Below are positions 15,920-59,671 of a DNA stretch of 64,000 nt, piece after piece. The notes under the pieces are model-generated. The model made no database searches and was not told the origin of the DNA. It worked only from the letters and a program-made list of their open reading frames with translations. The position numbers and the translations under genes are program-made. The stretch covers positions 5,766,001-5,830,000 of the forward strand of contig OX597839.1 of NCBI GenBank assembly GCA_951406725.2, in the 5' to 3' direction. Position 1 is the first letter of the stretch; each line of letters begins with the position of its first letter. Source of the DNA: Octopus vulgaris. Taxonomy: Eukaryota.

Positions 15920-16081
15920 GGCGCAGGTGTGGCTGTGTGGTAAGAAGCTTGCTTCTCAGCCACATGGTCCCGGGATCAGTCTCACTGCGGGGCACTTTCA
16001 GCAAATGCCTTCTACTATAGCCTCGGGGCGACTAAAGCCTTGTGAGTGAATTTGGTAGACAGAAACTGAAAGAAGTCTGTC

Positions 16082-16083
<2 letters not shown>
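15920..16083 (+). mobile_element. SINE family B, 5' half
   Basis: GGCGCAGGTGTGGCTGTGTGGTAAG head through GAAAGAAGTCTGTCG. Confidence 0.85.
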
Positions 16084-16112
<29 letters not shown>

Positions 16113-16113
<1 letters not shown>

Positions 16114-16315
16114 TTTATTTAAAGCAGCAGAAAATTCAACAAAACCTGTTACTCTGAGTTTCACGTTCCCAAAAACTGTCCGACGAACGGGAACGTGAAA
16201 CTCAGAGTAACAGGTTTTGTTGAATTTTCTGCTGCTTTAAATAAAGCATATTACTCTACCACTGGTATTTGAGTACTCTTTTTTCCACCTTGTTTCACAT
16301 TTATGTGTTTACTCC

Positions 16316-16317
<2 letters not shown>
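16113..16317 (+). mobile_element. miniature HHR-bearing PLE-type element with 58-bp inverted arm
   Basis: Arms 16113-16170 and 16189-16246; TA-flanked; second family copy at 59581. Confidence 0.85.
16176..16213 (+). ncRNA. minimal type I hammerhead, CCGACGA core variant
   Basis: Stem I CTGT/ACAG; stem II ACG-GGAA-CGT; GAAACT-CAG-AGT-A; predicted cut after 16209. Confidence 0.8.
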
Positions 16318-16376
<59 letters not shown>

Positions 16377-16379
<3 letters not shown>

Positions 16380-16578
16380 ATCCAAAAATGAAGACACAAA
16401 GAGAAAACACAACAACGCGAGGACGTGGAACAAATATAGTATTATTGGACACTCAGGAAAGAAGGAAAGAAGGAGGGTTTAACGTTTCGAGCGGAGCTCT
16501 TCGTCGGAAACGTAGGAGAAGGAAAGATCCAGAGAAGGGAAGACAAAGGAAAAAAAATCGCCAACGGTGCACACGCGG
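16377..16578 (-). mobile_element. miniature HHR-bearing element (HHR 16477-16511, CCGACGA core)
   Basis: Minus strand: GTTT-CCGACGA-A-GAGC-TCC-GCTC-GAAACGTT-AAAC. Confidence 0.75.
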
Positions 16579-16755
16579 TAGGGAGAGTTTACGAAAAAAA
16601 AAACAAAAGACGAAGACAGGTGGTGTACAAAACAAACAGATGTATTAGTATAACGCTCAGGAATAGAAAAAGTCTTTTACGTTTCGAGCCTACGCTCTTC
16701 TACAGAAAGGGACACAGAAAAACAAGGAGAGGAAAAAAAAGGAGAGAAAAAAATA
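16579..16755 (-). mobile_element. miniature HHR-bearing element (HHR 16674-16709, CTGTAGA core)
   Basis: Minus strand: CTTT-CTGTAGA-A-GAGC-GTAG-GCTC-GAAACGTA-AAAG; second copy 32690-32855. Confidence 0.78.
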
Positions 16756-25835: not shown

Positions 25836-26277
25836 GTTGTATTTAGGTTGGTCATTTTTGCCAGTTTAACCAATAAAAACACACGCACTATATATCTGGT
25901 GTTACCTTGCTTCAGCGTTATTCATTTTTTACATTAATCTTAATCTTATTTCGGCCAGAGTTCTTTCGTCACACTGCTGTTACCTCATCAGTGGTCCTTT
26001 GCTTTCTTCTTGCTTATTTGTGTGTCTCTCCTTACCAACGGTCAGCCATTTTGCAAAGGACCACTGATGAGGTCACAGGAGAGTGACGAAAGAACTCTGG
26101 CCGAAATGAGATTAAGATTAATGTGAAAAAATGAATAACGCTGAAGCAAAGTAACACTAAATATATAGTGCGTGTGTTTTTACTGGCTAAACTGGCAAAA
26201 TGACCATTCCTAAATACAACAATATATGTTTCAACAGACGATTTCACATCAAACATCATGCAAAACAAATATATAAA
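25836..26277 (+). mobile_element. non-coding miniature of the 10841-13703 PLE family, inverted arms, 15-bp TSD
   Basis: Homologous to 13430-13700; TSD TTTTCTGGAGACGTT at 25821-25835 and 26278-26292; CTGATGA..GAAA at 26064-26106. Confidence 0.9.
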
Positions 26278-32689: not shown

Positions 32690-32855
32690 AAGGAGAGTTT
32701 ACAAAAAGACGAAGACAGGTGGTGTACAAAACAATCAGATGTATTTGTATAACGCTCAGGAATAGAAAAGATCCTTTAGGTTTCGAGCCTACGCTCTTCT
32801 ACAGAAAGGGACACAGAAAAAGCAAGGAGAGAAAAAAAGGAGAGAAAAAAGGAGA
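32690..32855 (-). mobile_element. second copy of the CTGTAGA-core HHR mini-element (HHR 32773-32809)
   Basis: Closely similar to 16579-16755; stem III mutated (GAAACCTA). Confidence 0.8.
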
Positions 32856-59580: not shown

Positions 59581-59582
<2 letters not shown>

Positions 59583-59670
59583 GGTGTAAACACATAAAAA
59601 ATGTCCGATGACCGGCAACGGGAAACTCAGAGTAACAGGTTTTGTTGAATTTTCTGCTGCTTTAAATAAA

Positions 59671-59671
<1 letters not shown>
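59581..59671 (+). mobile_element. second copy of the 16113-family mini-element (HHR 59602-59637)
   Basis: TGT-CCGATGA-CCG-GCAA-CGG-GAAACTCAGAGTA-ACA; leading 18 bp is an inverted family 3' terminus. Confidence 0.82.

Follow-up and report, generated by a model that had tools for sequence, protein, structure and literature searches.

Two short hammerhead-bearing insertions in the genome of Octopus vulgaris are truncated ends of a Hydra-like Penelope-like retroelement with two fixed end points

Two short repeats carrying a hammerhead motif, each composed of an inverted and a forward arm and flanked on both sides by (TA)n runs, were found in a 64,000-nucleotide stretch of Octopus vulgaris DNA (contig OX597839.1, positions 5,766,001 to 5,830,000; hereafter, the window). 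Copies 1 and 2 share exactly 50 identical bases 3′ of stem II, and their arms end at the same two points, S (..AATAAAG) and L (..ACTCCGG), in the opposite arrangement. The locus thus raises the question of what kind of element leaves such insertions, how their two arms are primed, and what part the ribozyme motif plays in the process.

Both copies are 5′-truncated ends of a Penelope-like retroelement and are probably dead. According to a pattern search of the 64-kb window, they are the only members of the family there. The coordinates of their parts are given in Table 1. In copy 2, the inverted (L) arm and the S arm show zero overlap in element coordinates, and the first bases of the forward arm overlap an A run common to the inverted arm. 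Copy 1, like several other copies of the family, sits in the TA tail of a SINE-like repeat; this repeat (164 bp, window positions 15920-16083) ends in a TA run and has at least seven further long copies in the window.

Table 1. Features of the two insertions in the window (positions are those of the window).
Feature	Position	Strand	Basis or remark
(TA)n target left of copy 1	16084..16112	.	sequence
Copy 1 inverted arm, 58 nt, ends at short end point S (..AATAAAG), hammerhead 3′ half only	16113..16170	-	sequence
Copy 1 forward arm, 147 nt, 5′-truncated pseudo-LTR, ends at long end point L (..ACTCCGG)	16171..16317	+	matches 3′ end of locus L096 unit
Copy 1 type I hammerhead motif	16171..16219	+	sequence; cleavage is a prediction only
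Copy 1 hammerhead stem I, 5′ strand	16171-16179	+	sequence
Copy 1 hammerhead core CCGACGA (U4C, C7)	16180-16186	+	sequence
Copy 1 stem II ACG-GGAA-CGT	16187-16196	+	followed by GAAA, then palindromic helix III CUCAGAG
Copy 1 GUA (GTA in DNA)	16207-16209	+	cut predicted 3′ of 16209; 3′ strand of stem I begins at 16210
71-nt tail of copy 1, between S (16246) and L (16317)	16247..16317	+	end-point comparison
(TA)n target right of copy 1	16318..16376	.	sequence
Copy 2 inverted arm, ~19 nt, L end only	59581..59599	-	18/19 identical to L end
Copy 2 forward arm, ends at S	59596..59671	+	sequence
Copy 2 core CCGATGA	59605-59611	+	sequence
Copy 2 stem II CCG-GCAA-CGG	59612-59621	+	private A>C at 59612
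Copy 2 GUA	59632-59634	+	sequence

A 26-nt anchor starting at GAAAC gave 3,883 exact matches in the 2.8-Gb genome, whereas the controls, including a reversed one, gave 0; therefore, the family is not a chance pattern. A one-letter variant of the anchor gave 4,468 matches, so that the two variants sum to at least 8,351 arms inserted in (TA)n (all genome counts were made with sequence patterns). Walking through longer copies revealed a GIY-YIG-type endonuclease-like frame 1.3 kb upstream, and its peptide had 9,735 candidate genomic places, many of them in open frames of about 727 codons. At locus L096, a 3,431-bp tandem unit with three hammerheads was found, in which a 726-codon frame is followed by the 3′ UTR, the hammerhead and a tail running into the next frame. 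Based on motif reading, this frame includes YRDD of an RT at position 360 and VVY..YTG of a GIY-YIG domain at 596. The identity of the protein is based on motifs and architecture; Pfam returned 0 families for either query (the endonuclease-like peptide and the 726-codon protein). A total of 1,540 protein homologs were obtained, and the best 120 of them showed 42–58% identity and were nearly all unnamed; one homolog carries PF01541, which we take to be GIY-YIG. Many frames of 726–727 codons are intact and differ by only 0.2–4% in the 3′ region, as would fit a family that is, or was until recently, active. The hammerhead motif of the window belongs to the pseudo-LTR of a protein-coding Penelope-like element, which is absent from the original prediction.

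The element shows the features of EN+ Penelope-like elements, namely a single ORF with an RT followed by a GIY-YIG endonuclease (motif reading), tandem units forming pseudo-LTRs (L096), a hammerhead motif within the pLTR, and an inverted 5′-truncated copy with an optional tail at one end, the last being a stated Penelope-like feature (PMC8557442, in excerpt; PMC3846280). Within this group, C-terminal EN+ elements of the Hydra clade insert into (TA)n (Craig et al. 2021, PMC8557442, in excerpt). The octopus protein has the RWK and DKT (replacing DKG) motifs of this clade (RLRWK at 51 and DKT at 129; 94 and 112 of the best 120 homologs, respectively), CxxC and CxH around conserved E and N (CKLC..E at 682, CRH at 710), and no CCHH inside the GIY-YIG core, as there is no Cys in 596-615. 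However, its linker reads CNFKNESSC, that is, C-x-F-x5-C instead of the CxCX5C of the clade, which is found in 115 of the 120 best homologs. Because one linker cysteine is Phe, the element is to be called Hydra-like rather than a Hydra-clade member, a placement based on motifs. It also differs from the Hydra clade, as described in the same excerpt, in its unit (3.4 kb versus under 3 kb), its tail (71 nt versus 30–40) and its thousands of copies with many intact frames. The Neptune clade, our initial guess, was rejected, with CX2-5CxxC before the EN found in 0 of the 120 best homologs. A non-LTR retrozyme was rejected as well: such elements are non-coding tandem monomers of a few hundred bases without an ORF of their own (10.64898/2026.07.22.740005, in excerpt), whereas the motif here is contiguous with a coding element.

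The arm ends were tabulated for 132 arms located at the beginning of contig C1 (100 anchor places, 30 variant-anchor loci and 2 more inside them). Seventy arms ended at S, 61 at L (71 nt beyond S) and 1 elsewhere. The element reads CATAT after S and TGTA or TCTA after L, so both end points are followed by a short imperfect match to the TA repeat (4-of-5 and 3-of-4, respectively); the letters at most junctions are those of the target and, at a few, those of the element. Among 98 scorable two-arm insertions, 96 combined one S with one L arm (one-sided binomial p = 1.5e-26 against 0.5), while a fraction of 0.498 would be expected were the arm ends independent. The C1 sample contributed 59 reciprocal insertions (49 scored automatically after one duplicate was dropped, 5 read by eye, 1 resolved later and 4 long ones confirmed) and 1 discordant one. 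All 13 two-arm insertions of a second set of 20 regions were reciprocal, a third set of loci gave 9 reciprocal and 1 S/S, and a held-out set chosen by coordinates alone gave 15 out of 15. Six further insertions were unscorable and lie outside the 98, as do the two window copies, which both obey the rule. Single-arm copies in C1 numbered 41 (23 S, 18 L). The original prediction of two fixed points used in either order was thus upheld, with 131 of 132 arms in two classes and ends that were fixed and non-random in the samples tabulated; the letters that it had read in copies 1 and 2 (cores, stem II, 50 identical bases, reciprocal ends) were borne out on re-reading.

The 98 insertions included 1 S/S pair and 0 clean L/L pairs. 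The S/S pair (L046/L047, C11:23307418-23307676) is clean, and both of its arms carry a G5>A core change; in the second exception (C1:1514664), the partner of an L arm extends some 24 nt beyond S. In one further locus (L212, C1:2221300-2223300), the partner arm is a composite of an approximately 19-nt L end joined to a piece 527–669 nt upstream, which suggests a template jump after priming at L. Loose ends joined to TA behind both S and L were also present in 4 of 4 presumed-RNA sequencing runs, an observation uninformative on start, strand, cleavage or expression.

To trace the source of the arms, ten young insertions in which each arm measures about 1 kb or more were compared (L102 and L115 were left out, as one arm was shorter than the analysis window). 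Thirty-four doubleton substitutions were shared within insertions versus 1 between insertions, and the arms were sisters in 9 of the 10. Judged by these variants, the two arms of one insertion are shown to come from a shared source locus; they do not single out one RNA molecule, and the same pattern would be produced if the arms had undergone gene conversion. In the long pairs, neither arm was consistently longer, and the arms may each exceed one unit. Among 51 short pairs, the S arm reached further 5′ (by more than 5 nt) in 26 and the L arm in 15, and in 10 the L arm stopped at or before S, without overlap, as in copy 2; these counts are biased by the anchor, and what matters is that non-nested pairs exist. 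Since a fold-back copy must nest in its template, each arm is primed on the RNA separately.

The 5′ ends of the arms pile up at −34 to −25 from GAAAC (53 ends versus 4 at −44 to −35; values of −64 are extension artefacts). At position −34 lies the A of CCATTCT, a sequence that presumably fits the initiator consensus YYANWYY (Inr-like), and from these DNA ends we infer an internal RNA start at −34. A CTAG palindrome at −31 to −28, where many junctions lie with both arms ending at −31 to −33, could contribute to this peak. For Penelope of Drosophila virilis, too, an initiator-containing internal promoter has been described (PMC2377424, in excerpt).

Based on the above results, we suggest that the copies likely originate by twin target-primed reverse transcription from two fixed RNA sites 71 nt apart, one per strand (probability about 0.7). 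An internal promoter would start the RNA at the 5′ cliff, 34 nt upstream of GAAAC. The enzyme of the element would cut a (TA)n run on both strands, each of which would prime at a different one of S and L. A protein dimer would then make both cDNAs on a single uncut RNA, with the second cDNA displacing the first, and their 3′ ends would be joined, frequently within the CTAG palindrome. If priming took place in the pseudo-LTR at the 5′ end and synthesis ran off the RNA 5′ end, many tiny insertions such as copies 1 and 2 would result; the arms expected in this case, of about 85 and 155 nt, are the most frequent class and correspond to the form of copy 1. The exclusivity is most simply explained by one RNA that has a single S and a single L site. 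The stricter proposal of an obligate asymmetry, in which one enzyme dimer on a single uncut RNA uses each fixed site once per target strand, has in our estimate only slightly better than even odds. In LINE-1 twin priming, the second target strand reportedly primes on the same RNA and gives rise to an inversion, the second site being variable and the pieces non-overlapping. The octopus process would resemble it in the second priming and the resulting inversion; however, both sites are fixed here, and most arms copy one stretch twice.

Two RNAs of one source locus could also be held in an asymmetric complex, for example via the palindromic helix III, with one primed at S and the other at L. The computed self-duplex of CUCAGAG (−9.4 kcal/mol), arms that may both be longer than one unit without a fixed order, and shared variants that fit a shared locus are consistent with this arrangement. 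We nevertheless regard it as unlikely, because an extra asymmetry would be needed to avoid S/S and L/L pairs, so rare among the 98, and because many near-identical sources predict some mixed pairs, whereas only 1 of 35 doubletons crosses insertions. Another possibility is single priming at L followed by fold-back of the cDNA at the palindrome, copying back to S, or else self-priming that uses an antisense template, endonuclease resolution then leaving the tail; resolution and self-priming have both been discussed for Penelope-like ends (PMC3846280; PMC8557442, in excerpt). The one-of-each rule would then come by itself, and the many junctions at CTAG would fit. With fold-back, however, the S arm would be contained within the L arm, in conflict with the short pairs in which S reaches further or the L arm lacks overlap (copy 2 among them), and 23 partnerless copies end at S. 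For this octopus family, fold-back is largely refuted by the non-nested pairs; we consider it quite improbable as the general route, and it could still explain a minority of nested palindromic junctions.

The original prediction had instead seen an independent, selected CCGA-core ribozyme family in which stem II is kept by a compensatory A-U to C-G change. The genome contains 3,479 C4 and 4,048 U4 cores (7,527 in total), so the C4 core is abundant; the core, the GNRA loop and the helix III palindrome are retained from one subfamily to the next, and U4C, which is known from nature, reduces activity in vitro but is sufficient in a viroid in vivo (PMC3088659, in excerpt). However, the C10.1-G11.1 form occurred at only 2 genomic places, one of which is copy 2 itself, and the change is a single private A>C on a common A.G background. 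By hand count, position 10.1 was always A in the first 100 cores listed of either type, while 11.1 drifted (T 54, G 41, C 4 and A 1 in C4; A 97 and T 3 in U4), so there is no stem II covariation and the compensatory change failed. The youngest intact subfamily even has an A.A mismatch at 10.1-11.1. In addition, the 58-bp inverted arm of copy 1 would sequester the 3′ half of the ribozyme in read-through RNA. This explanation is the least probable of all, with a very small chance of being right.

What remains of the CCGA-core family is that C4 marks the older subfamilies; the young subfamily with intact frames has canonical CUGAUGA, and the hammerheads beside long open frames in 20 regions were all U4. 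The type I core CUGANGA..GAAA..UH is present in the young subfamily, whereas the window copies have C at position 4. The age order of the subfamilies comes from pairwise divergence in small samples: 5.9% for C4 A-U (4 arms), 3.2% for C4 A.G (11) and 1.4% for U4 A.A (9). The lineage seems to have lost the 10.1-11.1 closing pair and gained the canonical U4 via C>T at a CpG.

Helix II consists of 2 bp plus the drifting A.N, and helix I is long (12/13 pairs). For a young copy, the prediction includes helix I and a helix II of 2 bp capped by a GNRA loop, but the best fold of the monomer mispairs the core; monomer folds of the window copies were no more stable than shuffles (z +1.0 and +1.2). A search of positions 16113-16317 against Rfam at E ≤ 10 gave no hammerhead, only hairpin-driven microRNA matches; with the window and the element as queries, no hammerhead family was among the matches listed (best 150 of 479), only microsatellite- or hairpin-driven microRNA matches. 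Genome counts fell by 4.96% across the predicted cut and by 5.38% across the next 3 nt (8,503, 8,081 and 7,646). Since these genome-wide pattern counts give no excess of 5′ ends at the predicted cleavage site, uncut RNA is the likely template. The hammerhead is likely a weak, dimer- or protein-dependent passenger, dispensable for insertion.

Other hammerhead-like sequences were found during the analysis. An older diverged relative (L002, ~1600-1790) has helix III CUCUGAG, in which the palindrome is kept, a longer possible helix I and the same L end. Beside copy 1, a different repeat on the minus strand (window 16376-16745) includes two minimal hammerhead-like motifs, each with a 4-bp stem II, whose cores at 16507 and 16705 are one CCGACGA and one CTGTAGA; U4C therefore occurs also in a second family. 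A related copy of this repeat lies near 32704-32843, and at least 100 bp of it were present in 27 retrieved sequences. Two more cores, at 26064 (+; CTGATGA with a 5-bp stem II) and 26694 (+; CCGACGA), are unrelated to the Penelope-like family.

The closest published parallel in priming is Poseidon_Ac (PAc) of the anole (Frangieh et al. 2024, PMC11167929, in excerpt). Like the octopus element, PAc has two internal RT start sites bounding the tail, an AT-rich target with both strands extended, and a hammerhead just upstream; in vitro, its protein cuts and extends both strands, and hammerhead mutants insert normally, so that insertion there needs no hammerhead. PAc belongs to another clade; its start sites are within the ORF and are described as lacking homology to the target, whereas those of the octopus element precede the ORF, with the 4-of-5 and 3-of-4 TA-repeat matches after them. 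The PAc start site was alike on the top and bottom strands, exclusivity being outside the tests of that study, and the one-of-each rule found here is not reported in the excerpt. As in other metazoan PLE hammerheads (Cervera and de la Pena 2014, PMC4209133, in excerpt), a type I motif with a palindromic helix III lies in the pLTR, and most copies are dispersed and truncated, with pairs on opposite strands; with their small palindromic helix III, those ribozymes are thought to cut as dimers, weakly. They differ in having a long helix II with a conserved G10.1-C11.1, compared with the short helix II, long helix I and, in older subfamilies, U4C seen here. Penelope families have also been counted in an octopus, ribozymes being unmentioned in the excerpt (PMC13282606).

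It should be noted that the tail, the inverted copies, the palindromic hammerhead, two RT start sites and natural U4C are already in print. Strict one-of-each use, shared-source arms and the 5′ cliff at an Inr-like site were not found stated in the openly available texts searched; the supplements of PMC8557442, PMC4209133 and PMC11167929 may list the octopus family, a C4 core or statistics on arm ends.

A useful negative emerges for the ribozyme: subfamilies that have U4C and lack a closing pair in stem II were amplified thousands-fold, and the inserts bear no trace of cut RNA. Penelope-like elements are the sister group of telomerase, and the origin of their inverted ends and tail is still debated. 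The 96 of 98 one-of-each insertions, together with single-source, non-nested arms, exclude simple fold-back here and give a sharp in vitro prediction. If the obligate asymmetry is true, the "optional tail" would be a fixed product of every two-arm insertion, and the octopus family, which is young, intact and present in thousands of copies, and whose presumed RNA 5′ end is mapped, would lend itself readily to demonstrating it.
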